From NCBI GenBank assembly GCA_951812825.1, contig OX638324.1, positions 2,331,141 through 2,395,140 of the forward strand: DNA of 64,000 nt, written 5' to 3'. The stretch's first letter is position 1. The number at the start of each line of letters is the position of its first letter. Shown here piece after piece: positions 5,191-59,999 of the stretch. The notes beneath the pieces were generated by a model that was given only the letters and a program-made list of their open reading frames with translations, was not told where the DNA came from and ran no database searches. The stretch is from an uncultured Dehalococcoidia bacterium (GTDB taxonomy: Bacteria > Chloroflexota > Dehalococcoidia > Lucifugimonadales > GCA-2712585). The translations under genes were made by a program, and so were the position numbers.

Positions 5191-6323
5191 TGATCTCGTT
5201 CAGATAGATATGAGACGGATGGAGTTGTAAGGGAAATAGAAAGGGACCATCCTTTGGGTGAGATAGACCGAAGGAGGTCCCTTTCATGAGGGTAGTAGGA
5301 CTACCCAAATCATTCTATCAGCTTTCGAAGAGGACACCAGCACAGCTGACGTTGAAAGCGCAAGATCGGATGAGGTGGGTGAGTGGCTGGAATAGGTTGA
5401 GGCAACGGGGAGTGACGGCATCGGAAGCAGCAGAGGCACTGGGACTGTCACGCTGTAGCCTGTACCGGTGGGACAAAGCCCTCAGGGAGGAAGGGCCGGC
5501 GGGCTTAGTAGACAAGAGTCGACGACCCAAGAGGGTGAGGCGGCCTACGTGGACTGTTGAGTTAGCTAGGGCAGTGCTAAAGCTGAGGGAAGAGTATCCT
5601 AGATGGGGGAAGGACAAGCTGGCGCCGTTGCTCAGGGATAAGGGCTGGGAGGTGTCCACATCCATGGTGGGCCGCATTCTGACTCGCTTGAAGGCCCGTG
5701 GGGTGTTGAAAGAGCCGCCCCGTGACGGTATATCGGCCCGTAGGCGCACGCGTCCGCGTCCCTATGGGGTACGGAAGCCGAGGGAGTATCAGGTCATAGA
5801 ACCGGGGGACATCGTGCAGGTGGACACTTTGGACGTGCGCCCTCTGCCTGGCATGGTGCTCAAACACTTCACCGCTCGGGACATGGTCTCCAGGTGGGAC
5901 GTGCTGGAGGTGCACACAAGGGCCACGTCCACACTGGCGGCCCGGTTCCTTGAGTCCATGCGGCGACGGTTTCCCTTCCCCATCAAGGCAGTTCAGGTGG
6001 ATGGAGGCTCCGAGTTCATGGCGGACTTCGAGACCGCTTGCCAGAAGTTCGATATCAAACTCTTCATACTGCCGCCGCGCTCTCCCAAGCTCAACGGCCA
6101 TGTGGAGCGGGCCCAGCGTACTCATACCGAAGAGTTCTACGAGCTCTATGATGGCGAACTGGATGTCTCTACCCTCAACCGGGCTCTGCTCAAATGGGAG
6201 CAAATCTACGACACCTTCCGACCTCATCACTCCCTGGACGGACTAACCCCTTTGCAGTATCTTCTCCAGTGCCACCCATCCTTGGTCCCTTCTAATCTGT
6301 CTCACATGTACTGAACGAGTACA
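5191..6323 (+). mobile_element. IS481-like insertion sequence, copy 1 (1133 bp)
   Basis: Boundaries were defined by where identity with the inverted copy at 58867-59999 stops. The imperfect terminal inverted repeats are TGATCTCGTTCAG... and ...CTGAACGAGTACA, matching at 11 of the first 13 positions. The element is flanked by GTGTG on both sides, a candidate 5-bp target duplication. Confidence 0.85.
5286..6314 (+). CDS. IS481-family DDE transposase (HTH plus rve integrase core)
   Basis: 342 aa. An N-terminal HTH (AEALGLSRCSLYRWDK) is followed by DDE residues in the contexts VQVDT, VQVDGGSEF and NGHVERAQRT. It is identical to the ORF at 58876-59904 except for one residue (S/T). Confidence 0.9.
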   Translation: MRVVGLPKSFYQLSKRTPAQLTLKAQDRMRWVSGWNRLRQRGVTASEAAEALGLSRCSLYRWDKALREEGPAGLVDKSRRPKRVRRPTWTVELARAVLKLREEYPRWGKDKLAPLLRDKGWEVSTSMVGRILTRLKARGVLKEPPRDGISARRRTRPRPYGVRKPREYQVIEPGDIVQVDTLDVRPLPGMVLKHFTARDMVSRWDVLEVHTRATSTLAARFLESMRRRFPFPIKAVQVDGGSEFMADFETACQKFDIKLFILPPRSPKLNGHVERAQRTHTEEFYELYDGELDVSTLNRALLKWEQIYDTFRPHHSLDGLTPLQYLLQCHPSLVPSNLSHMY

Positions 6324-28104: not shown

Positions 28105-28222
28105 GGCAGGAAGGTCTTGCATTGCGGGCTATTCTGGTGGGAGGGTAAGTCCGGCGGGTGGGGGTTTGGCGTAGGGGATAGTGGGGGTTGGGTGAGTTTG
28201 AGTTGGGGTGGGAAGGAGTTTT

Positions 28223-29812
28223 GTGAGTAGGATATTGTTGTTTTTTGCGATGCTGGTGGTTGGGGTTGCTGCGGCTGTCACGCTGGGTTGTTCGGGGGGT
28301 GATGGGACGTCGGGAGTGCCGACGGCGACTGTGATGCCTGAGGCTGCGGAGGGCCGGCCTGGGAGTGCAACGGTCGCGACTCCGTCGGCAACGTCGCGGG
28401 TGACGGCTGGGGCGACGCGTGAAAATACTACGTCGGAGATGACTCCAGCGTTGGGGGCGGGCTACGATTCCAGTGAGAATATGTTCCGTCTGTTTTCTGG
28501 GCGGGACCACGAATCTGTCGACACACTTGAGGCTATGGAGCTTGCTGTTGCCAACAGGGACAGGTCGATGGCGCCGGTGCTTATTGAGATGCTTCGATTC
28601 TTCGAGGACTATGTACATGCGATCGAGGCCCGGAAGGCGCTCACGGCGATAACGGGCCGGGTGGTTGAGGGGAATGAGGGGTCGTGGAGCGGGTGGATGG
28701 AGTGGCTGGTCAATAACGCCGACGAGCACCATCCGCCCGCCGGATATCTGGACTGGAAGATCGGGTTGATGAGTCTGATTGACCCCAGGTTCGAGGAGTT
28801 TCTGGCTCCGGCGGCTGAGGGGTCTCGCGTAAATGTGTTTGAGATTGCGTGGGGAGGCGTCGGGCCCGACGGGATTCCAGACCTTCAGGACTCGCCCGTA
28901 GTTTCGGCGGAAGAGCAGGACTATCTCCAGCCGGGGGACCGGGTCTTTGGAGTGTCGATCAACGGAGAGCATCGGGCATACCCGCATCGGATCATGAATG
29001 CTCACGAGATGGCCAACGACGTGCTGGGGGGCGAGCCCATTGCCCTGGCCTATTGAACGCTTTGCGGCACCGGAATCGTGTATTCCGCAAAGATAAACGG
29101 GGAGCCAACCACTTTCGGAACGTCGGGGTTGCTGTATCGCAGCAACAAGGTGATGTACGATCGTCTGACCAATAGTCTGTGGAACCAGTTTACGGGGGAG
29201 CCTATCATCGGACCGCTGTGGAACTCCGGGATGCAGCTGGATTTTTTCCCTGTGCTTGTGACGACGTGGGAGGAGTGGGTGGAGCTTCATCCGGATACGA
29301 CGGTGCTGGACAGGGAAACGGGGCATTATCCAGTGACGTACTATCTGCCGGAGGAGCACCGGGAGGCGATCTACTATGATTACTTTAACTCGCCGGGAAC
29401 GATGTTCGCGGTGCCGGACCGGGACGGCCGGCTTGCAACGAAGGACGTGGTGCTGGGGGTGCAGGTGAATGACAGCTACAAGGCGTACCCGGTTGCGGCG
29501 CTGCAGGAGGAGAGGATTGTCAATGACGCGGTGGGAGGCGAAGGGGTGGTGGTGTTGGGGTCGGCGGCGAGCCAGGGGGCGAGGGCCTATTTGCGAGGGG
29601 ACAGAGTCTTCGAGGCAGCGGGGGAGGATGGGGGAGTGGGGATTCCATCGGTGATTGCGGATGCTGATGGAGGCAGGTGGCAGGTGACGGAGGAGTTTCT
29701 GGTCAATGCGGCCGACTGGTCGGAGAAGCTGGCCCGGATTCCCACGCACACTTCGTACTGGTTTGGGTGGTTCCAGTTCCACGGGGATACGGAGCTTTAT
29801 ACGGGGCGGTGA
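28223..29812 (+). CDS. DUF3179-family lipoprotein read through an in-frame TGA (candidate selenocysteine at 29054-29056)
   Basis: The GTG start at 28223 follows GGAAGGAG. There is a signal peptide with ...TLGC. The two track ORFs (28208-29056 and 29078-29812) share one frame with only the TGA between them. Read-through gives ...HRAYPHRIMNAHEMANDVLGGEPIALAY-U-TLCGTGIVY...GTSGLLYRSNKVMYD, matching the DUF3179 core, where a Cys is conserved at this position. Confidence 0.65.
29060..29092 (+). promoter_or_regulatory. SECIS-like hairpin immediately downstream of the in-frame UGA
   Basis: The lower stem pairs CTTTG (29060-29064) with CAAAG (29088-29092). The upper stem pairs CGGAAT (29071-29076) with ATTCCG (29082-29087). 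The apical loop is CGUGU, which contains GU. The loop lies about 20 nt from the UGA. Confidence 0.5.
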
Positions 29813-30891: not shown

Positions 30892-32685
30892 TTGACGACA
30901 CCTTCTGCTCAGAATCCACGGTACGAGGCTGACGAAAATCCGCCGCTGAAAGCGTCTCTGGGATATGGAGCGCAATTCAGCCTGATTGCATCGGCGACGC
31001 TGCTGGTGACGCCCATCGTTGTGGCCAAGGCATCGGGACGGGACGACGAATACCTGGTGTGGATGGTGTTCGCTTCGCTGCTTGTGGCGGGGATTTCGAC
31101 GCTGATGCAGGTGAAGAAGTTTGGGTTGGTGGGGACGGGATCGATGCTGCCGATGTTCACCGCCGCCTTCGCCATTCCATTCTGCATAACGGCGGTGACG
31201 GACGGCGGCCCGGCGACGCTCGCCGCGCTGGTGCTGGTGTGCGGCATTGGTCAGCTCATCATTGCCAGATGGCTTTTCCTGCTGCGTCGCATAGTCACAC
31301 CCGTGGTGGGCGGAACGGTGCTGATGATCCTGTCTATAACCCTAGCGTCGGTGATTCCGAGGCTGCTGCCCGAAGCTTCTGACGAAAACTCATTGGGTGC
31401 ACACTTGGCGGCGCTGACGGCGCTGGCAGTAATTTCTGCGCTTATCCTGAGAGGGTCTGCCGTGATACGGCTTTGGGGGCCGGTGATTGGTATAGTCGCT
31501 GGGACCGCGGTGGCGGCCGGCTTCGGCATATATAACGCAGATGCGATTCTGGACGCAGCCTGGATAGGAATACCCGGGGAATGGCCGGGTCTGGGCGTGC
31601 CCCCGGTTGTATCGGGCTTTGGGGTGTCTTTCTGGACGCTGCTACCGGCGTTTCTATTCCTCAGCATTGTGATTTCCATACAGGTAAACGGGGAGAGCAT
31701 TGCCCAGCAGCGAGCTTCACGAAGGGAGAACCGGGCGGTTGACTTCAGGGAAGTGCAGGGGGCTATGACGGGCACCGGCGTAACCAATCTGATGGCGGGA
31801 GCCGCTGGAACGGTGCCTTACATAATCAGCCCGGCCGCCGTGTCGTACACGCAGACAACGGGAGTAGCTTCGCGGAGGGTGGGCTACATAATTGGCGCGT
31901 TGTTCATCATGGTGGCCTTTCTGCCCAAGGTTTCCGCGGTGTTCAGTTCCATCCCCGGGCCGGTGATGGCGGGTTTTCTCGTAGTTTTAAGCGCGTACCT
32001 GTTCGTAGACGGAGCGCGGACGGTGATGCAGAGCGAGGAGAACCGTCAGAGGATAACGGTGGCGGGAGTGTGCTTCTGGATTGGGGCGGCGTTCCAGTTC
32101 GGGCTGTTCTCGCTGCCGGACGTGGGGGCGGTTTGGGCGACGCTGGTGCAGAGCGGAATCACGACGGGCGGGGTGGCCGCGATAATAATGATTCTGTACC
32201 TGGAGTTCACCAATCCCCGGAGGATGCGGTTCCAGTCCAAGCTGGACATTGAAGTGTTGCCAGAGCTAAATGAGTTTCTGGGGAAATTCGCGGACCGGCG
32301 GGGTTGGGATACGCCGATGAAGGAGCGGCTGAGCGCCGTTGCGGAGGAGACGCTGCTTTCGCTTTCGCCACTGGACCTGGAGGCGTTCATGGCGGAGGAT
32401 GAGGAATCGGAGGATGACGAAGAGGCGTCGGAAGGGGAGGCGGACCCGGGCCGCCAGCTGGTGGTGCTGGCATCCAGCGATGGGCCGGTGGCGACACTTG
32501 AGTTTATTGGAGGGGCGGGGGACGAGGGGAACATGGAAGACCGGATACATCAGCTTCAGCAGTATGATGAGGAGACGCCGGTTGAGCAGGAACTTTCGCT
32601 GAGGATGTTGCGAGCATACGCCACTTCGGTGGTGCATCAGCAGTTTCACGGGACGGATATCATAACTGTTCGGGTGGAGCCCTAA
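30892..32685 (+). CDS. NCS2 (xanthine/uracil/vitamin C permease) family transporter with an extra cytoplasmic C-terminal domain of about 160 aa
   Basis: 597 aa with a polytopic N-terminal part of about 430 aa resembling nucleobase:cation symporter-2 permeases. The soluble C-terminal extension contains an acidic linker (EDEESEDDEEASEGE). The start codon is TTG. Confidence 0.65.
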   Translation: MTTPSAQNPRYEADENPPLKASLGYGAQFSLIASATLLVTPIVVAKASGRDDEYLVWMVFASLLVAGISTLMQVKKFGLVGTGSMLPMFTAAFAIPFCITAVTDGGPATLAALVLVCGIGQLIIARWLFLLRRIVTPVVGGTVLMILSITLASVIPRLLPEASDENSLGAHLAALTALAVISALILRGSAVIRLWGPVIGIVAGTAVAAGFGIYNADAILDAAWIGIPGEWPGLGVPPVVSGFGVSFWTLLPAFLFLSIVISIQVNGESIAQQRASRRENRAVDFREVQGAMTGTGVTNLMAGAAGTVPYIISPAAVSYTQTTGVASRRVGYIIGALFIMVAFLPKVSAVFSSIPGPVMAGFLVVLSAYLFVDGARTVMQSEENRQRITVAGVCFWIGAAFQFGLFSLPDVGAVWATLVQSGITTGGVAAIIMILYLEFTNPRRMRFQSKLDIEVLPELNEFLGKFADRRGWDTPMKERLSAVAEETLLSLSPLDLEAFMAEDEESEDDEEASEGEADPGRQLVVLASSDGPVATLEFIGGAGDEGNMEDRIHQLQQYDEETPVEQELSLRMLRAYATSVVHQQFHGTDIITVRVEP

Positions 32686-32817: not shown

Positions 32818-33071
32818 ATGGCGAAGTTCTTGTTCCAGGCAGACTATAGCCCTGCTGGAGTGGCAGGGCTACGCAACGAGGGCGGTACAGGGCGGAAGAG
32901 GATGTTTGCGGACATGGGCGGGACAATCGAGTTCTTCTATATGCCTTTGGCAGAGAGGACCTCTACATGATTGTGGACCTGCCTGACGATGCTGCGGCCG
33001 TAGCTGCTTGAATGGCGGCGACGGCATCCGAAGTGTTGGCTGACGGCGTATACTGCATAGCACTGGTTTGA
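32818..33071 (+). pseudogene. Remnant of a GYD-domain protein gene
   Basis: MAKFLFQADYSPAGVAGLRNEGGTGRKRMFADMGGTIEFFY... matches the GYD/COG4274 N-terminus. A frameshift is then needed to read ...DLYMIVDLPDDAAAVAA, followed by an in-frame TGA and a truncated tail. It is too short to appear in the ORF track. Confidence 0.45.
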
Positions 33072-34777
33072 TGATTCCTGTGAACCGCATATATTTCCCT
33101 ACTATGCTTGGGTTGGCCTTGGTGTTGGCGATTGTGGGCTGTCAAAGGCCGGATGATGAATCCGACGCCTCGACGCCTGAGTCCGGGGCTACATTCATTG
33201 TGACGGCAGTTCCGGCATCGACGACGGCGGCTGCTGAAGCGGCTCCAGCCTCTCCGACGGCGGGGCCTACGGCGACGCAGGCAACCACATTGCCGGCTCC
33301 GTCGACGCCAGCGCCCACTGCTGCGCCTGCCGCGCCCTTCCCTTCGCCTACGAGACGGCCCATACCACGGGAGACGCCCACGCCCACGCCGGACAGGACT
33401 CGTTCGCCCACGCCTACGCCTATTGCTGTTCCGGCAGTCTACGAGTCCAACAAGAATATGTTCCTGCTACTGTCGGAGTTCATTCATCCTGAAGAGTCAT
33501 CGTTGGCGGCGTTGGAGAGGGCCAGGGCTGAGAGGGATGTCTCCCAGGTGCATGTCATATTGGAGGCGCTGCCGTTCTTCACCCGCGACCTTGCGATGGC
33601 CGGCATAGAGGCGGTGGGCCACCTTACGGGGCAGGATTTCGGTTTCGACCTGAGGAGGTGGAGAGAGTGGCTTGGGCCCAGGCACGAGGAGTATGCGCCA
33701 CCTTCCGACTATGCCCGCTGGAAGGCCAATATGCTTTCTCTGATTGACCCGGAACTGGGCGATCTGATGAAGCAGGCAATAGATGGAGGATCGAGGGCTA
33801 ATCTTACCGAGATTGTATGGGGCGGGGTACGAACGGACGGCATTCCGCCGCTGGAGTTTCCGCCGCACGCGAGGCCGGAGGGAGCGCTATATCTGCTGCC
33901 TGACGACAGGGTGTTTGGTGTTTCCATCAACGGTGAGCACCGGGCGTACCCGCTGAGGGTGATGAATGCCCACGAACTGGCGAACGACGTGCTGGGCGGG
34001 GAGCCAATTTCGTTAGTGTATTGAACACTCTGCGGCACCGGAATCGTGTATTCCGGCTTCGTAAACGGAGAGGAGACAACCTTCGGGACTTCCGGGATGC
34101 TGTACCGGAGCAACAAGGTTATGTATGACCGGGCAACCCGCTCTTTGTGGCATCAGTTCACGGGGGAGCCGATTATCGGCCCCCTGGCCAACTCCGGCAT
34201 CAAGCAACCCTTTTTCCCGTCCGTAGTCACCACGTGGGAGGAGTGGCTGGCGGAGCATCCCGACACGACGGTGTTGACGAATGAAACTGGCTATTACAGG
34301 GCGGAGTTCTACGTTCCTGAAGACAATCCACGGGCCATCTACTACGAGTATTTTACTACGGATGAGGTTATGTTCCCGGTGTGGCTTCGGGACCCGAGCA
34401 TAGAGCCGAAGAGGGTGGTTGTGGGACTCTTGACGAGCGAGAGAAAGAAGGCGTACGTGGTCGATGACTTGCGGGCGGCGAGGGTGATTAACGACACGGT
34501 GGGGGACGTGGAGGTAGTGATTGCGGCGTCGGGCGAGTCGCGCTCGGCCCGCGCCTACGAAAGGCAGGGGGAGACGTTTACGGCGGCGGGCGGCGGGGAC
34601 GCGGAGGCGACGCCCCGGTTCCTGGTGGACTCCAACGGAGCAAGATGGGAGGTGACCGAGGAGGCGCTGGTCCTTGAGAGCGACCCCTCAAAGACGCTGC
34701 CGCGGCTTGCTACGCTGACCTCCTTCTGGTTTGGGTGGTACCAGTATCACCCGGACACGGAGATTTACCGGCCCTAG
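33071..34777 (+). CDS. DUF3179-family lipoprotein paralog read through an in-frame TGA (candidate selenocysteine at 34022-34024)
   Basis: It has a signal peptide with the lipobox ...AIVGC and a Pro/Thr/Ala linker. The track ORFs 33068-34024 and 34046-34777 share one frame. Read-through gives ...HRAYPLRVMNAHELANDVLGGEPISLVY-U-TLCGTGIVY...GTSGMLYRSNKVMYD. Confidence 0.65.
34038..34056 (+). promoter_or_regulatory. SECIS-like hairpin downstream of the second in-frame UGA
   Basis: CCGGAAT-CGTGT-ATTCCGG is a 7-bp stem with the same CGUGU loop. It starts 13 nt after the UGA. Confidence 0.5.
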
Positions 34778-34779
34778 AG

Positions 34780-37700
34780 TTAGCCTGAATCCTGCATGGC
34801 TTGCTCTTCAACAGGGAAGAGGACGACGCGGATGTAGCGGTCTGGGGTGAAGTAGCGCTGCGCCGCTTCGACGACTTGCTCCAGTGTCAAAGCGTCCAAC
34901 CGTTCATCGAAACCTGCGGGGTCTGTGAAAGGGCCACCGTTCTGCGCCGCGGTCTGGATCCGCCCGAGCCAGAATGTGTTTTCTCGAAGGTCTTCCTCCC
35001 GGTTGGAGCGCAGTTGTTCCTTGACGGTGTCTAAGTATTCCTGCTCACCGCCCTCCCGGAGCCAGTTAATCTCGTCTATGACCGCTCCAAAGAGCTCGTC
35101 GGTGCGGGAAGGGTCGCTGCCGAAAATGATTGAGGCCAGGTATTCTTGATCGGGAAGCCTGGAGGCGCTGGCGTTTACTCTTATGCCGTAGGTGCCGCCA
35201 AGCTGCTCGCGCACGCTCTCATGAAGCCGCAGGCCCAAAATCTCACCCGCAACGGTGAAGGCGAGAGCTTCATTCTGGCTCCATTGAGTGTCACCGGCGA
35301 AGACGACGACGGAGTTGCTTCTTGGTTCGGTCCCAGCGCGGACAACTTCGTCAATCAGTGTCATGGGCGGGTCTATTCCAACATCAATCCACTGCTCGGC
35401 GCGCCCGGAAGTGGGCAATGCGGCCAAGTAGGTTGTGGTCAGGGAACGCAGATTATCCCAATCGAAGGCGCCGACAAAAACGAAGGTGGCATCGCCAATA
35501 TCGGCGAAACGGTCAGCGTAGATGGCTTCCGCCCGCTCCATGTTCAGTTCTTCGACCAGCTCAACGGTAAGGGGCCTGTTGCGAAGGTGGTTCTGGCCAA
35601 GAATGGTGTTGACGGTGTCAGAGAGAATGGAGTCCGGCTCAGCGGCGTAGTACTCGGCAACGCTTATGAGTTGGGACATGTACCTGGAGAAGACGGCGTT
35701 ATCCAACCTGGGTTCGGTGGCGTACAGCCAGATCAGCTGGAAGAGGGTCTCCATATCTTCGGGAGAAGCGTTGCCCGTGAAGCCCTCAGAGAGTTCGCTG
35801 ATGTAGGGGGAAACGGAGACCAGTTTGCCGGCAAGGAGCTTCTCCAGGGTAACGTTGTCGTGGGGACCAACACCGCTGGCTGCGACCAGCTGGGCGGCGT
35901 ATTGGGCCGACACGAAATCTTCGTCGGAGACGAGGGAGTGGCCGCCGGGGCTGGAGGCGCTCAATACGACTTCGTCGTCCTTGAAGTCGGTCTGCTTGGC
36001 GATGACGGTTATGCCGTTGGAGAGGGTCCACATCCGGGCGTCTATAGACTCGATGTGCTCCTCCGAAGTGATTGATCCCGGTGTGGGGATAGTCGCAAGC
36101 AGAGGAACGTCGCCGACGCTGTCCTCGTAGGGCTCTACGGCGAGGGTATTTGCGGTTTCGAGTTGAAGTTGGACCGCCGCGGATAGATCCATGTCGGAAC
36201 TGGTCTCGGTCTCCTCGGGGCGCACGATCAGGAGACCTGTGTCTTCCGATGCAGACCAGATTTCTGCAACTTCAACGAATTCCGTCAGAGAGATCTGGGG
36301 CAAGATTTCCTGGTAAAGTTCCCACTCAGCTTCGATTCCGAGATACGGCTCTCCCCGGGTAAAGTGGGCCACGTAGGAGTTTGCCAGGGTGGATGAGGGG
36401 GTTTGGCCTCGTTCCTTGTAGGCGCTCTCGATGAGGCTCAGGAGGTTGACCTTCTCTCGTTCCAGTTCGCTTTCTGTGAAGCCGTGCCGGCTAGCGCGCT
36501 GGATTTCTTGCAGAATAGCCGCCAATCCCTTCTCGACGCCACCCTCTTCAACCCAGGCTCCGAACTCCAGGAGGTCCAGGGTTTCCACGAAGGGAGAACC
36601 CTGGACCCAGCCGTTCAGGTAGGGAGGGTCAACGGCCCGGGCGCGTTCGGAAAGGCGGGCGTTCAGCATCATTAAGGCCAGGGATTCCACCACGTGACGG
36701 CGGAATGCCGACAGGTGGTTTCCCGTATCAGGAGTCAACTTGCGAAGGAGGAGTAATTGAGTGGCCGGAGATTCGGGATCGGTGAAGACCAAGATGTTCG
36801 GTTCTTCATTGCCCGGGACTTCGAAGCTGGGCCTTTCGGTTGAGGTTGTTAGAGTGGCGCTGTGCTGATTGGCCTCTCCCTCGGGCGGCGGAGCAAAATA
36901 CTGCCTTATCTTGGCCTGTATCAACTCGGGGTCGAAGTCGCCTACGGCGATCAGGGCCATGAGATCAGGCCTGTACCAACGCTGGTAGAAGTCAATCAGG
37001 TCTTGGGCAGGGGCGTTTTCGACTACCTCCGGCAGGCCAATTGGGGATCTCTGGGAGTAGGGGGAGTCGCCAAAAAGGAGGTTAAGCAAGCTGCTGCGGA
37101 GACGGGAGTTGAATCCCTGGCCGAGGCGCCACTCTTCCAAGACGACACCGCGCTCCAGGTCCACCTCCTCGGGATCGAAGGCTATGGCGTAGGCCCAGTC
37201 GCTGAGGATCTGGAATGCCTTTTCGATGACCTCCGGATCGTCGGTTGGTATCTCAAGGAGGTAGACGGTGGCATCAAAGCTTGTATAGGCGTTAACGTCG
37301 GGGCCAAAGGTTCTGCCGATGGACTCCAGGTAGTCGACAATTTCCTGCTTGGCAAAGCGCTGGGTGCCGTTGAAGGCCATGTGCTCTACGAAGTGGGCGA
37401 GGCCGCGCTGGTCCTCCTCCTCGTGGACGGAGCCGGCCCTAACGACGAGGGTTAACTGGGCGAGGTCTCCAGGTTCCTCGTTACGTCTGATGTAGTAGCT
37501 GAGGCCGTTGGTGAGGGCGCCACGAGTGACTGAGGGATCTAAGGGAAGGGCGGCTTCGGGTTTCGGAGTGGGTTCAGGGGTAGGCTCCGGTGTTGGAATG
37601 GGGGTTGGAGATGGGGTTGGTACGGGAGTTGGTTCCGGCGTGGGGGCAGGTGTTGGTGGGGGTGCAGGGGTCGGAGTGGGTATGGGCCGGGGTACACGTG

Positions 37701-38001
37701 TGGGAGTTGGGAGAGGCGCTGGATCCGGTGCGGGTACAGCTGTAGACTCCGGGGTGGGAGCCGGTGTTGGCGCGGGGGTCGGAGTAGGAGCTGGGGCAGG
37801 AGTCGGGGCTTGGGTGGGAGTCGGAAGCGAGGCTGGCGCGGGAGTGGGGGGAGGCGCTGGCGCTGGGGTGGATGTGGGTTCCGTTGGTACGACGGTTGGT
37901 GTGGGAGTAGCCTCTCGGCTGCATGCAATCAGCGCCACTAACACCAGCGTTAGAGTGATGACGGCTAACGTCGGCGTAAGTCTTTTGGCCATTAATCTCA
38001 C
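34780..38001 (-). CDS. M16-family (pitrilysin/insulinase-like) zinc peptidase lipoprotein with two M16 units
   Basis: 1073 aa. It has the lipobox LIAC, a Pro/Thr/Ala linker of about 130 aa, the inverted zinc motif [11 protein letters not shown] and a second inactive-type M16 repeat. Confidence 0.85.
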
Positions 38002-38363: not shown

Positions 38364-40520
38364 TTAGCGGGTGTAGCCCGAAGGTCGGGTTGCCTGTCGA
38401 GAGTTTCGGGTGATGTGGTTGAGGAGGAAGGCCATGTCGTGGTAGGAGCCGAGGTGGCCGAGGCTGGCCTCCAGGGAATGGAATTGGTCCAGGAGGGAGA
38501 GGAGGTCCTCGTGGACGGTGGGGCTGGAGGAGTCGGGGTAGGGGAGGCTGCTGTAGAGGTCGGAGGAGAGGGCAACGATGGCGCCTAGGCGGAGCAGGGG
38601 GTCGGCGAAGTTGAATTCGAAGTTGTGGCTGTTGATCTCGGCGTGCTGGCGGTTGGACTCCTGGGTTGAGGGAGTTACCCAGCGCAGTTCAACGTCGCCG
38701 AGGGTGAGGGGGCCGGTGAACCATTGGTCCTTCAGTTCGAGCTCGTAGAAGACGGTAGTTGCCGTGCCTGCGGGAATCTCGGCGAACTCCCTGCGTGCCT
38801 GGGTGAAGGACTCGTCGGAGGTGAGGCGGTTCTCGTAGCCTACGATGCGCCAGGAGTTGACGACGTTGGGGTCCCAGGTGACCTGGGCGCGAGTGGCGTC
38901 GGCGAAGGGGATGGAGAGGGCGAGCCAGTTTTCGCGGGTGAAGGTGGCGTGGGCCTGGTTGACGTCAGTGAGGTAGCGGTACCAGCCGTTGCCGTGCTGG
39001 GCGAGCTGTTCGAGGAGGAAGTCGTTGAAGTTCTCGATGCCGACGCCGATGGTGATGAGGCGGAGGGGGTTGGAGTTGTCGTAGTCGGCGGTGGTCTCGA
39101 GGATGGCGAAGGGGTCTGTGGCGTCGACGTTGGCGACGCCGTCAGACATGAGGATGATGTAGTTGTAGGAGTTGGGGTTCTGTCTGCGGGCCTGGTCTGC
39201 GAGCCAGACGCCTTCGTTGAGACCGGCCTGGACGTTGGTGGAGCCGCCGGGTCGGAGATTCTGGATGGAGTTGTAAACATTGGAGTCGCCGGGGTGTCTG
39301 TGCTCCACGGTGTATTGGGAGAGGACGTTCTCGCTGAAGTGGACGACGGCGATGCGGTCCTGGTCTCTGAGGCTGTCGAGGATGGACTCAGCGGCTTCTC
39401 TGGCGATGTCCACGCGGTTGCCGCCGGACATGGAGCCTGAGGCGTCGAGGACGAGGGTGACGTTGACTGGGGTGGAGTCGTAGTTGAGCTCGGGCGCCTG
39501 GAAGGCGATGCGTGCGAGGTGCAAGCGGCTGTCGACGGGGTGGGTGACGACATCTGTGGTGACGGCGAAGCTGTCGTCGCGTCGGGGCAGTTGGTAGCCG
39601 TAATTGAAGGCGTTGATCCACTCCTCGGCGCGGACGGAGTCTGGGTCGACCTCGAAGCCGTTTTGGGCCCAGTTGAGGGCGAGGAAGTAGGAGGTGCGGT
39701 CGGTGTCCAAGCTGAAGGTGGAGACGTTGTCGACGGCGGCGGAGACGAAGCGTTCCCTGGCGTAGTCGCGGAAGGTAGTGGCTGGGGCAGTGCCGCCGGG
39801 CTGTGTCTGTGGTGGTGTCGTTGGCCTTGGGGAGGCGGTTGGCCTTGGAGAGGCGGTTGGAGCGGGAGTGGATGTGGGTCTGGGAGGCGCTGCCGTTGGG
39901 GCTGTGATGGGTGCGGACGCGGCCATGGTGGGAGCCGGGGCGGCTGTTGCGGTGACCTCCGCAATAAACCGTTGCCGTGTGGGAGTTGGGGCGGCGGTTG
40001 GCCTTGGAGCCGCGGGGGCGGCGGTTGCCGCCGGAGCTGCGGTTGGAGCCATGGCGGGAGCTGGGGTGGGTCTACGCGTGGGCGCCGCGGTGGGGGCAGG
40101 CGTGGGAGCGGGCGCCATGGTGGGAGCGGAAGTGGCGGCGGGGCTTACAGTCCTGCCACCGCTCCCATCATCTTCCGGCCTTGCTTCCAAAGCAAACATG
40201 CTATCCAACTGATTCCCTGGGTCGTCGTCGAAGAGGACGTTCAATGTGACGAAGATTGCTACCAATACAACGGCTGCCGCGCCTACGGCGGAGAAGACGG
40301 GGCCGGGTCTCAATTGGAAAAAATTCCTGAAGCTGTTAGTAATTCGGGACAGGAGTGGTGGGGCGTCTGGTTCGTCCATTCTACTCTTGAGCCAGTCCCA
40401 GGGGTCCTTAGACATGCGGAGGTCGGAACTCTCGGTCTCGAAGTGGTCCCTCAGGACGCGGTCCGTATCCCGGTCCGATGCGCCGTTATTGCTTTTTCTT
40501 GGTGAACTTCCACTGCCCAT
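38364..40520 (-). CDS. Membrane-anchored von Willebrand factor A (VWA, YfbK-like) protein, probable anti-sigma partner
   Basis: 718 aa. It has a cytoplasmic N-terminus, one TM helix (VFSAVGAAAVVLVAIFVTLNVLF), a long Ala/Pro/Thr linker, the MIDAS motif VLDASGSMSG and a C-terminal DUF3520-like region. It starts 4 nt after the sigma gene. Confidence 0.75.
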   Translation of the reverse strand: MGSGSSPRKSNNGASDRDTDRVLRDHFETESSDLRMSKDPWDWLKSRMDEPDAPPLLSRITNSFRNFFQLRPGPVFSAVGAAAVVLVAIFVTLNVLFDDDPGNQLDSMFALEARPEDDGSGGRTVSPAATSAPTMAPAPTPAPTAAPTRRPTPAPAMAPTAAPAATAAPAAPRPTAAPTPTRQRFIAEVTATAAPAPTMAASAPITAPTAAPPRPTSTPAPTASPRPTASPRPTTPPQTQPGGTAPATTFRDYARERFVSAAVDNVSTFSLDTDRTSYFLALNWAQNGFEVDPDSVRAEEWINAFNYGYQLPRRDDSFAVTTDVVTHPVDSRLHLARIAFQAPELNYDSTPVNVTLVLDASGSMSGGNRVDIAREAAESILDSLRDQDRIAVVHFSENVLSQYTVEHRHPGDSNVYNSIQNLRPGGSTNVQAGLNEGVWLADQARRQNPNSYNYIILMSDGVANVDATDPFAILETTADYDNSNPLRLITIGVGIENFNDFLLEQLAQHGNGWYRYLTDVNQAHATFTRENWLALSIPFADATRAQVTWDPNVVNSWRIVGYENRLTSDESFTQARREFAEIPAGTATTVFYELELKDQWFTGPLTLGDVELRWVTPSTQESNRQHAEINSHNFEFNFADPLLRLGAIVALSSDLYSSLPYPDSSSPTVHEDLLSLLDQFHSLEASLGHLGSYHDMAFLLNHITRNSRQATRPSGYTR

Positions 40521-55310: not shown

Positions 55311-55386
55311 TGGTGGAGCTGGGGGGACTCGAACCCCCTACCTCTTCAATGCCATTGAAGCGCTCTCCCAGATGAGCTACAGCCCC
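55311..55386 (-). tRNA. tRNA-Ala (anticodon GGC) with encoded CCA
   Basis: The reverse complement folds as GGGGCTG-TA-GCTC-ATCTGGGA-GAGC-G-CTTCA-ATGGCAT-TGAAG-AGGTA-GGGGG-TTCGAGT-CCCCC-CAGCTCC-ACCA. A G3:U70 pair is present, which is the Ala identity element. Confidence 0.9.
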
Positions 55387-55514: not shown

Positions 55515-56780
55515 TCAGTGGGGCGCTATTACGCTGAAGCCGGCGTAAGGGCGAAGGGCTTCGGGTATGAGGACGGAGCCGTCGGACTGCTGTCCGTTTT
55601 CAAGGACGGTGATGACTATACGCGGCAGGGCAAGGCCGGAGCCGTTGAGGGTGTGGGCCAGGGTTGGCGGAGCGCCGGTTTCGGTACGGAAGCGGACGTT
55701 GGCACGGCGGGCCTGGAAGTCGGTGCAGTTGGAGCAGGAACTCACCTCCAGCCACTCCTTGGAGCCGGGGGCCCACACCTCCAAGTCGTAGGACTTGGCG
55801 GATGCAAAGCCCAATTCCGGGGCGCACAGCTGTAGGACACGGTAGGGCAGTTCCAGAGCCTGACAGACCATCTCGGCGTCGGCGACGAGGCCTTGCAGCT
55901 CATCCTCAGATGTCTCAGGTTCGACGAACTTGTACATCTCCACCTTCTGGAACTGGTGGACCCGCTTGATGCCACGGGTGTCGCGTCCGGCGGCGGCTTT
56001 CTCGCGACGGAAGCAGGGGGTGGAGGCGGTGTAGCGGAGGGGCAGCGTGTCCGGGGGGAGCACCTCATCGCGGTGCAGGTTGGTGAGAGGCACCTCGGCG
56101 GTAGGGATGAGCCATAGATCGTCTTCGTCGTCGTGATAGAGGTTGTCGCCGAACTTGGGGAGATTGCCGGAAGCTTCCATGACGTCGCGGCGGACGACGG
56201 CGGGAAGCTGGGCTTCCGTGTAGCCGTTCCTGGTGGTATGGAGGTCCAGCATGAAGTTGACGAGGGCGCGTTCCAGCCGGGCGCCTTGCCCCATGAGGAC
56301 GAAGAAGCGTGAGCCGGCGAGTTTTGCGCCGCGGGGCAGGTCGATGACGCCAAGGATCTCGCCCAGATCCCAGTGGGGCTTGGGCAGGAAGTCGAAGGCG
56401 GGCATATCGCCCCAGGTGCGAATGACGACGTTGTCGTCTTCGCCTTCGCCGTCGGGCACGTCGGGCTGGGGGATGTTGGGCATGCCGAGGAGGAGGTTGT
56501 GGAGTTCTGCCTGGACCTGGTCGTGCTGCTCGTCCAGGTCGGTTATCTGCTGACCGACCTGTCGCATTTCTGCGATGAGGGGGGCCCTATCGCCGGACAT
56601 GCGGCCGATGGCGCGGCTGGTCTCGTTGCGGAGGGCGCGGAGTCTGTCGGCCTGGGCCTGGAGGCTGCGGCGTTCTTCGTCGAGGGAGATTATCTGGTCG
56701 ATGGGCTGCTCCTCGCCGCGTCGGGCCAGGGCTTTGGAGACGAACTCCGGGTCTTTGCGGATGAGTTCGATGGACAGCAT
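55515..56780 (-). CDS. serS: Seryl-tRNA synthetase
   Basis: 421 aa. It has an N-terminal coiled-coil arm (MLSIELIRKDPEFVSKALARRGE...) and the class II core motifs. Confidence 0.95.
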   Translation of the reverse strand: MLSIELIRKDPEFVSKALARRGEEQPIDQIISLDEERRSLQAQADRLRALRNETSRAIGRMSGDRAPLIAEMRQVGQQITDLDEQHDQVQAELHNLLLGMPNIPQPDVPDGEGEDDNVVIRTWGDMPAFDFLPKPHWDLGEILGVIDLPRGAKLAGSRFFVLMGQGARLERALVNFMLDLHTTRNGYTEAQLPAVVRRDVMEASGNLPKFGDNLYHDDEDDLWLIPTAEVPLTNLHRDEVLPPDTLPLRYTASTPCFRREKAAAGRDTRGIKRVHQFQKVEMYKFVEPETSEDELQGLVADAEMVCQALELPYRVLQLCAPELGFASAKSYDLEVWAPGSKEWLEVSSCSNCTDFQARRANVRFRTETGAPPTLAHTLNGSGLALPRIVITVLENGQQSDGSVLIPEALRPYAGFSVIAPH

Positions 56781-58866: not shown

Positions 58867-59999
58867 TGTACTCGTTCAGTACATGTGAGACAGATTAGAA
58901 GGGACCAAGGATGGGTGGCACTGGAGAAGATACTGCAAAGGGGTTAGTCCGTCCAGGGAGTGATGAGGTCGGAAGGTGTCGTAGATTTGCTCCCATTTGA
59001 GCAGAGCCCGGTTGAGGGTAGAGACATCCAGTTCGCCATCATAGAGCTCGTAGAACTCTTCGGTATGAGTACGCTGGGCCCGCTCCACATGGCCGTTGAG
59101 CTTGGGAGAGCGCGGCGGCAGTATGAAGAGTTTGATATCGAACTTCTGGCAAGCGGTCTCGAAGTCCGCCATGAACTCGGAGCCTCCATCCACCTGAACT
59201 GCCTTGATGGGGAAGGGAAACCGTCGCCGCATGGACTCAAGGAACCGGGCCGCCAGTGTGGACGTGGCCCTTGTGTGCACCTCCAGCACGTCCCACCTGG
59301 AGACCATGTCCCGAGCGGTGAAGTGTTTGAGCACCATGCCAGGCAGAGGGCGCACGTCCAAAGTGTCCACCTGCACGATGTCCCCCGGTTCTATGACCTG
59401 ATACTCCCTCGGCTTCCGTACCCCATAGGGACGCGGACGCGTGCGCCTACGGGCCGATATACCGTCACGGGGCGGCTCTTTCAACACCCCACGGGCCTTC
59501 AAGCGAGTCAGAATGCGGCCCACCATGGATGTGGACACCTCCCAGCCCTTATCCCTGAGCAACGGCGCCAGCTTGTCCTTCCCCCATCTAGGATACTCTT
59601 CCCTCAGCTTTAGCACTGCCCTAGCTAACTCAACAGTCCACGTAGGCCGCCTCACCCTCTTGGGTCGTCGACTCTTGTCTACTAAGCCCGCCGGCCCTTC
59701 CTCCCTGAGGGCTTTGTCCCACCGGTACAGGCTACAGCGTGACAGTCCCAGTGCCTCTGCTGCTTCCGTTGCCGTCACTCCCCGTTGCCTCAATCTATTC
59801 CAGCCACTCACCCACCTCATCCGATCTTGCGCTTTCAACGTCAGCTGTGCTGGTGTCCTCTTCGAAAGCTGATAGAATGATTTGGGTAGTCCTACTACCC
59901 TCATGAAAGGGACCTCCTTCGGTCTATCTCACCCAAAGGATGGTCCCTTTCTATTTCCCTTACAACTCCATCCGTCTCATATCTATCTGAACGAGATCA
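58867..59999 (-). mobile_element. IS481-like insertion sequence, copy 2 (1133 bp, inverted relative to copy 1)
   Basis: It is the reverse complement of 5191-6323, with a single visible nucleotide difference (59769 versus 5421 region, Thr/Ser codon). The flanks are ...AAGGGGA and GAACCTG..., with no convincing target duplication. Confidence 0.85.
58876..59904 (-). CDS. IS481-family DDE transposase
   Basis: 342 aa, identical to 5286-6314 except residue 45 (T versus S). Confidence 0.9.
   Translation of the reverse strand: MRVVGLPKSFYQLSKRTPAQLTLKAQDRMRWVSGWNRLRQRGVTATEAAEALGLSRCSLYRWDKALREEGPAGLVDKSRRPKRVRRPTWTVELARAVLKLREEYPRWGKDKLAPLLRDKGWEVSTSMVGRILTRLKARGVLKEPPRDGISARRRTRPRPYGVRKPREYQVIEPGDIVQVDTLDVRPLPGMVLKHFTARDMVSRWDVLEVHTRATSTLAARFLESMRRRFPFPIKAVQVDGGSEFMADFETACQKFDIKLFILPPRSPKLNGHVERAQRTHTEEFYELYDGELDVSTLNRALLKWEQIYDTFRPHHSLDGLTPLQYLLQCHPSLVPSNLSHMY

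Follow-up and report, generated by a model that had tools for sequence, protein, structure and literature searches.

How is a gene to be read when a TGA codon stands within a conserved protein domain? The question is raised by two DUF3179 genes in a 64,000-nt stretch of contig OX638324.1 from an uncultured marine Dehalococcoidia bacterium of the SAR202 type (the whole stretch is referred to here as the window), each of which is interrupted by an in-frame TGA that is followed by the same block of nucleotides with the capacity to fold into a small hairpin. We propose that both genes most likely encode DUF3179-family selenoproteins, in which the UGA would be read as selenocysteine (Sec), a reading that rests on comparison of the sequence with its homologs, and that the conserved hairpin is very probably a functional selenocysteine insertion sequence (SECIS) of the bacterial type (bSECIS).

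The two DUF3179 genes and the block behind the UGA

Both genes lie on the forward strand (Table 1) and each takes the form of a pair of open reading frames (ORFs) divided by the TGA (28208-29056 with 29078-29812, and 33068-34024 with 34046-34777). The start codon of copy 1 is uncertain, the earliest possible start being a GTG at 28208, and the read-through products of both copies would have approximately 535-570 amino acids (aa). The Pfam family PF11376 (DUF3179) spans the TGA in both copies, matching positions 2-292 of the 292 in the profile (E = 6e-79 in copy 1 and 4e-77 in copy 2), and the match takes up the C-terminal ~310 residues of each read-through protein, end to end. The N-termini of both proteins are lipoprotein-like (..VTLGC and ..AIVGC, within the regions 28208-28870 and 33068-33840) and copy 2 has a linker rich in Pro, Thr and Ala. 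The TGA stands at the first cysteine (Cys) of the CxxC motif in the Y-C-T-L-C-G of the homologs, the peptide across the predicted Sec site would read ...IALAY-U-TLCGTGIVYSAK, and the resulting Y-U-T-L-C-G in both copies fits the UxxC/T motif of the DUF3179 family. Elsewhere in the window TGA is a normal stop that terminates 16 of the 38 long ORFs, which excludes a genome-wide reassignment of this codon, and beyond the two DUF3179 genes the window holds no TGA-interrupted gene with protein-like sequence on both sides.

The paralogs are 58% identical over the 1,587 columns of their codon alignment. The block behind the TGA, consisting of TGCGGCACCGGAATCGTGTATTCC and one further G, is identical in the two copies over 25 nt (29063-29087 and 34031-34055) and is the longest identical run in that alignment, the runner-up being 15 nt, while the codons on either side of it diverge (ACG CTT versus ACA CTC upstream, GCA AAG versus GGC TTC downstream). 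The stem is CGGAAU/AUUCCG in copy 1 and CCGGAAU/AUUCCGG in copy 2, capped in both by the loop CGUGU at a distance of 20 nt from the UGA. An earlier reading of the letters of this stretch, the sequence-only reading, had described the identity as 24 of 24 nt, the divergence of the flanking codons, the two stems, the loop and its spacing of about 20 nt, and all of this is confirmed, with the identity running one nucleotide further. The hairpin motif occurs exactly twice in the window and once per homologous locus, and hence it is not a general repeat.

Pairing, codon choice and the Cys homologs

The relatives recovered by protein search are of two kinds. Some 95 are full-length Cys proteins of ~540 aa (60-65% identity) with the motif AYCTLCG[AS]GIAY[SH]G, and about 25 are fragments of 217-247 aa (74-99% identity), most of which start with M-YSAK..., a sign that the gene calls begin anew at the GTG within G-I-V-Y-S. 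Public C-terminal fragments of 239-247 aa (P0002, P0006, P0013, P0055 and others) start at this mid-loop GTG (29078 and 34046 in the window). At the DNA level, genomes were scanned with peptides from other parts of the protein as seeds, which keeps the search unbiased for the Sec site, and this gave 18 loci, all from Dehalococcoidia/SAR202 metagenome-assembled genomes (MAGs). One of these reaches the C-terminal end only, and the site is TGA in 16 of the 17 usable ones and TGC in the remaining one, L012. A metagenome scan in which the amino acids Y-U-T-L-C-G-x-G-I-x-Y were fixed and every synonymous site was left free gave 107 stretches. The TGA is kept in the 16 genomic and in more than 100 metagenomic homologs. 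A total of 124 sites were extracted, 104 of them of the G-I-V-Y class, and these reduced to 90 distinct 57-mers from the window, the genomes and the metagenomes, of which 89 were aligned; L042 was omitted for a frame-disrupting change in the 3' arm. That change, seen in L042 and one more contig (GGAATCGTGTATTAACAA, giving G-I-V-Y-stop), and the in-frame TAG that L022 carries two codons past the hairpin may mark pseudogenes or assembly errors. The closest ortholog of copy 1 is L004 (96% aa identity over 110 codons), the closest relative of copy 2 is L094 (91% aa identity), and outside the hairpin the nucleotide sequences have a median pairwise identity of 0.69.

The hairpin is present in all 16 TGA-bearing genomic homologs. 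When these are joined with the two window copies to a set of 18 sequences, GGAATCGTGTATTCC is unchanged throughout except for one GGGAT, which forms a G.U pair, and the 6-bp stem forms in every one of the 18, with an outer pair that is C-G in 16, G-C in one and U-A in one. Among the 89 distinct TGA-containing homologs GGAAU-CGUGU-AUUCC is nearly invariant, the 20-nt spacing is kept without insertions or deletions, and no sequence lacks a standard pair at any of the five core positions, where G.U, C-G and G-C occur as replacements. Stem lengths are 5 bp in 15 sequences, 6 bp in 51, 7 bp in 15, 8 bp in seven and 9 bp in one.

The sequence-only reading had pointed to compensatory changes in the stem as a check, and these are found at two pairs. 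Pair 24-34 is AU in 75 sequences, GU in 11, CG in two and GC in one, and its C-G and G-C forms alter the protein, GGC going with GCC (Ser to Ala) and GGG with CCC (Ser to Pro). The sixth pair, 21-37, is UA in 42, CG in 29, GC in two and UG in one, and is unpaired in 15. The third base of codon +5, a synonymous site, is associated with the first base of codon +11, which is A in 42 of 43 cases when the former is T and G in 29 of 38 when it is C (chi-square p = 5e-15, not phylogeny-corrected). The covariation score of the hairpin is 0.174 as against 0.102 in shuffles (none of 500 reaches 0.174), and slid registers give at most 0.04. RNAalifold independently predicts exactly this 6-bp hairpin, and over 180 nt the only other pairs that it predicts form a 4-bp long-range helix that we regard as spurious. 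The lower stem CTTTG/CAAAG that had also been described for copy 1 does exist there, but it is not conserved, since its middle pair fails to form in 16 of the 18 sequences and its covariation is not above that of shuffles.

Codon choice within the hairpin is also restricted. In the alignment of 89 the Ile codon is ATC and the Tyr codon is TAT without exception, and the Val codon is GTG in 88, whereas in the same alignment the control Gly+4, two codons upstream, uses GGC 45, GGT 22, GGA 13 and GGG nine times, and the control Tyr-1, before the UGA, uses TAT 69 and TAC 20 times; nearby Thr and Leu codons are likewise free to vary. Codon entropy in the Sec forms is zero at positions +7 to +9 as against 0.4-2.0 bits at neighbouring conserved codons. 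In the 18-sequence set a single codon is used at only eight of 122 conserved degenerate columns, and four of these eight are the consecutive I-V-Y-S at 29075-29086.

The Cys forms provide the control. The seven distinct Cys-form DNA sequences (L012, L126, L130 and L133-L136) vary freely at the same nucleotide sites (GGT/GGC/GGA, ATT/ATC, GCN, and TAC/TAT with TTC in one), and they share no hairpin. Identity to copy 1 is 56-64% for Cys forms, which lack the hairpin, and only 51-55% for the Sec forms L013, L016 and L017, which have it; the hairpin therefore tracks the TGA and not relatedness. The two outcomes that the sequence-only reading had named as refutations, TGA-bearing orthologs without a conserved hairpin and Cys homologs with the same nucleotide conservation, were both looked for, and both comparisons favour its interpretation. 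In addition, the Sec forms have Val where the Cys forms carry Ala, and the constraint on the loop, in which GUG supplies the G-U, would account for this difference.

A second DUF3179 Sec subfamily, with Y-U-T-L-C-G-S-G-I-L-Y-D-T, was also encountered (L020, L024, L028, L031, L044, L058, L063, L077, L080, L086, L091, L105, L109, L111, L112 and L119). Its members are without the GGAAUCGUGUAUUCC hairpin and carry GGAUC-NGG-GAUCC, which starts 9 nt after the UGA and has four pairs in 16 of 16 and a fifth in 14 of 16; the loop begins ~14 nt after the UGA, just below the published range of 16-37 nt.

Weighing the SECIS assignment

The published bSECIS rules specify a loop of 3-9 nt with a G among its first two bases, a distance of 16-37 nt between UGA and loop, and a stem of 4-16 bp (PMC13188914). 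The loop described here has 5 nt, CGUGU in 88 of 89 sequences and CGUCU in one, with G and U as its second and third bases, and both its 20-nt spacing and the stems of 6 bp in copy 1, 7 bp in copy 2 and 5-9 bp in the homologs fall inside these ranges, in agreement with what the sequence-only reading had claimed for the position and the GU-containing loop. The in-frame UGA directly upstream of the hairpin is aligned with the Cys of the homologs, and the structure is kept with compensatory changes in the Sec orthologs and is absent from the Cys orthologs. The model also sets an energy cut-off of -7.5 kcal/mol or lower, which the hairpin of copy 2 passes at -8.8 kcal/mol.

A number of observations weigh against this assignment. 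The hairpin of copy 1 alone is weak, at -5.1 kcal/mol above the cut-off, and reaches -7.3 kcal/mol with the lower stem and -11.7 kcal/mol with the core enforced and the rest free; likewise, only 19% of the homolog hairpins reach -7.5 kcal/mol alone, although 94% do so with the core enforced and non-conserved pairing included. The predicted folds of the two copies differ. The hairpin of copy 2 forms in the ensemble, with pairing probabilities of 0.85-0.98, but in the free 60-mer of copy 1 it is outcompeted by an 8-bp helix, CUUUGCGG/CCGCAAAG (29060-29093, -15.2 kcal/mol), that is particular to copy 1 and dominates the predicted free-RNA ensemble. The pairing probability of the copy 1 hairpin stays at ~0 as long as the UGA and the 10 nt that follow it (13 nt in all) are present, and the conserved hairpin is the predicted structure once they are removed; these 13 nt would correspond roughly to the stretch occluded by a ribosome sitting at the UGA. 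The competing helix was rejected, as it is not conserved in the orthologs and shows no covariation. The covariation of the conserved hairpin is itself largely shared within subclades, and the statistics are not phylogeny-aware. A search of Rfam gave no match at the gathering threshold and only noise at E <= 10, none of it of SECIS type. Finally, selA, selB, selD and tRNA-Sec were not found in the 64-kb window, in the retrieved flanks or in 37 retrieved loci, so the Sec competence of this genome rests on the literature on its lineage.

The two copies by themselves also offer little. They agree in about half of all conserved codons, and eight identical codons out of eight at a pre-specified place have P = 0.0035, but a run of at least eight identical codons anywhere in the gene arises in 33% of permutations. 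Fold z-scores are not significant (-0.4 to -1.0), and hairpins that comply with the rules for loop and spacing occur in the window at 18% of random in-frame coding positions with <= -5.1 kcal/mol and at 4.6% with <= -8.8 kcal/mol, which together make single-sequence folding uninformative. A small hairpin in two paralogs is weak evidence on its own; with the orthologs, the hairpin signal is far beyond chance. Hence the proposal of the sequence-only reading that nucleotide conservation beyond the need of the protein reflects a constraint on RNA structure is upheld by the homologs and not by the identity of the paralogs.

If the hairpin acts as a SECIS, the signal would be the core GGAAU/AUUCC of 5 bp, which the majority of homologs lengthen to 6-9 bp, capped by CGUGU. 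By analogy with E. coli fdhF, we infer that with the ribosome at the UGA the hairpin would lie just outside the mRNA channel, where its apical part would be bound by SelB.GTP.Sec-tRNA(Sec), and that SelB would then bring the Sec-tRNA into the A site, competing there with release factor 2. In sequence, the hairpin coincides with the conserved peptide G-I-V-Y-S (GGA AUC GUG UAU UCC), such that the protein would fix Gly (GG-), Ile (AU-) and Tyr (UA-), pairing would fix the synonymous sites and the Ser codon by forcing GGA, UAU and UCC, and the loop would require AUC and GUG. The loop bases C27 and G30 alone would need a separate constraint, the simplest being recognition by SelB.

A more far-reaching version, that these hairpins constitute a minimal, family-specific SECIS class of 5-6 bp, usually under the strength that the energy cut-off demands and without a lower helix, whose CGUGU is read base-specifically by the SelB of Dehalococcoidia, seems to us possible but rather doubtful. 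If it were true, a loop invariant at two synonymous sites would force Val for Ala and fix Ser, SAR202 genes of this kind would systematically be overlooked or split by the standard SECIS predictors and by gene callers, and this hairpin together with GGAUC-NGG-GAUCC would define what the SelB of the lineage needs.

With regard to what else the hairpin might do, it could stimulate a recoding of the UGA that does not involve Sec, such as near-cognate read-through with Cys or Trp. The inserted residue is not identifiable by sequence alone and the window holds no Sec machinery, but we see only a slight chance of this given the correspondence of UGA and Cys in UxxC, the GU apical loop at SECIS distance, the classification of the family as a selenoprotein family (PMC13188914) and the abundance of selenoproteins in the lineage (PMC13326102). 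The TGA could also be a true stop in split genes or pseudogenes, with the GTG at 29078 and 34046 re-initiating a C-terminal protein and the conserved block serving as the re-initiation signal. Public gene calls do start fragments of 244-247 aa exactly at this GTG, which is kept in 88 of 89 homologs. Such a split, however, would fall within the CxxC motif and divide one folded domain, and a start signal leaves unexplained why bases before and after the GTG covary; moreover, it is TGA specifically, and not any stop, that is kept at the Cys position down to 51% protein identity, and purifying selection persists on both halves. Re-initiation at the conserved GTG is therefore unlikely, to the point that we give it very little weight.

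Constraint on protein and codons only, in which a conserved peptide, CGTGIVYS, is written in preferred codons and the RNA has no function, is largely refuted and is in our view highly improbable. The peptide is indeed conserved, and both the frequency of identical runs in permutations and the comparable hairpins that are common in coding sequence would allow for it, but the Cys forms share the G-I-x-Y frame and vary at synonymous sites, the loss of codon entropy at +7 to +9 stands out from the nearby codons, Gly+6 is held to GGA when Gly+4 uses all four Gly codons, and the amino-acid changes follow the pairing (GGC/GCC and GGG/CCC). A recent gene conversion that homogenised the 25-nt patch, to which the short tract of exact identity between genes 5 kb apart might point, is refuted by the orthologs, since the same 15-17 nt are found in the orthologs of each copy (L004 and L094) and in ~100 further contigs, and the sequence outside the hairpin has diverged to the median identity given above. 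The reading of the hairpin as a SECIS of Sec-encoding genes is thus the one that we retain.

Genomic setting and comparison with known systems

The coordinates of the two genes, their hairpins and their neighbours are collected in Table 1. Between the DUF3179 genes lies a gene for a permease of the xanthine/uracil type. A tandem pair of DUF3179 genes was also seen in the Cys-form contig L132 (1952-2157), and clustering of DUF3179 paralogs may be common. Two IS481-family insertion sequences, an inverted pair that is 99.8% identical over 1,133 nt, bracket ~52.5 kb that contain both DUF3179 genes. The forward strand of the window (1-64000) is G-rich, with 34.7% G and 24.5% C and a GC skew of +0.17 overall; the skew is +0.22 to +0.24 over the first 40 kb (1-40000) and, as it persists at +0.16 to +0.31 across the minus-strand genes at 34780-38001 and 38364-40520, it is not an effect of the coding strand. 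The only translation-related genes nearby are those of a seryl-tRNA synthetase and a tRNA-Ala(GGC). Seryl-tRNA synthetase also charges tRNA-Sec, yet it is a housekeeping gene.

Table 1. Positions in the window of the DUF3179 genes, their predicted Sec codons and hairpins, and neighbouring features
Feature	Position	Strand	Remarks
DUF3179 selenoprotein gene, copy 1 (predicted)	28208..29812	+	single frame across TGA; PF11376 match
In-frame UGA, copy 1 (predicted Sec codon of U-T-L-C)	29054..29056	+	aligns with Cys in homologs
SECIS hairpin, copy 1 (predicted)	29071..29087	+	C-GGAAU / loop CGUGU (29077-29081) / AUUCC-G; 6 bp, -5.1 kcal/mol
DUF3179 selenoprotein gene, copy 2 (predicted)	33068..34777	+	old paralog; PF11376 match
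In-frame UGA, copy 2 (predicted Sec codon)	34022..34024	+	aligned with copy 1
SECIS hairpin, copy 2 (predicted)	34038..34056	+	CC-GGAAU / loop CGUGU (34045-34049) / AUUCC-GG; 7 bp, -8.8 kcal/mol
Xanthine/uracil-type permease gene	30892..32685	+	between both DUF3179 genes
IS481-family insertion sequence	5191..6323	+	transposase ORF 5286-6314
IS481-family insertion sequence	58867..59999	-	transposase ORF 58876-59904
tRNA-Ala(GGC)	55311..55386	-	
Seryl-tRNA synthetase	55515..56780	-	

On the function of the protein there are at most structural leads. An AlphaFold2 model of the Cys homolog P0003 (pLDDT, the predicted local distance difference test, 79) has an N-terminal helical region of ~120 aa followed by a beta-rich domain, and the CxxC lies inside well-predicted beta structure. 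There was no match to an NCBIfam family, a sequence search of the PDB gave no relative, and a Foldseek search of the model against the PDB gave nothing below E = 0.017. The weak local matches from Foldseek are to Rieske ferredoxins (3gce, probability 0.85, TMt 0.56), a lead and not a result, and together with the conserved H...H...(C/U)xxC they may hint at a putative metal site.

Listings of bacterial selenoprotein families already include DUF3179, with the motif UxxC/T, and reviews credit the first prediction of DUF3179 selenoproteins to the 2007 metagenome study of the Olavius algarvensis symbionts (PMC9312934, PMC13188914), in which SECIS-like hairpins were reported for all of the new families (Zhang and Gladyshev 2007; PMC1976440). 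MAGs of Dehalococcoidia are among the most selenoprotein-rich bacteria; 46-49 selenoprotein genes are reported for MAGs that share their UUID-named assembly series with several of the homolog loci described herein (PMC13326102). The element is thus a bSECIS of the ordinary kind, in a selenoprotein family that is already known and in a Sec-using lineage, and the finding leaves our knowledge of Sec decoding unchanged. In the literature that we searched we found neither a description of the hairpin consensus GGAAUCGUGUAUUCC nor a mention that public gene calls split these genes. What is gained is a corrected annotation, both for the two genes here and for dozens of homologs whose public gene calls break at the UGA, together with a SECIS consensus, clean and backed by covariation, for the DUF3179 selenoproteins of marine Dehalococcoidia/SAR202, and a clear case of an RNA signal embedded in a coding region that shapes both codon choice and amino-acid sequence.

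Compared with the known DUF3179 selenoproteins, the genes described here have the same Pfam domain and the same Sec position and motif, U-T-L-C, and have Cys homologs. They differ in coming from Dehalococcoidia/SAR202, whereas the family was first predicted in a worm-symbiont metagenome, and in adding an N-terminal lipoprotein signal and a helical region. As in the bSECIS elements of the E. coli fdhF/fdnG type, the hairpin lies in the coding region directly 3' of the Sec-UGA, and the G-U of its loop, at G25-U26, is close to the G23-U24 of fdhF (the U of the UGA being 1; the fdhF sequence used in this comparison was checked against 5,419 E. coli genomes). The spacing of 20 nt, the 5-nt loop, the stem of 5-9 bp and the compensatory changes likewise agree with the bSECIS consensus (Zhang and Gladyshev 2005). 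In contrast to fdhF, however, the DUF3179 hairpin has no bulged U and no sequence similarity to the fdhF element, and its helix is shorter and weaker than those of the fdhF/fdnG type, with a mean of -5.35 kcal/mol and without a conserved lower helix. It also departs from other bSECIS elements in that the sequence of its arms and loop is almost frozen, because the hairpin overlaps the conserved G-I-x-Y peptide and the same nucleotides serve a dual coding role.

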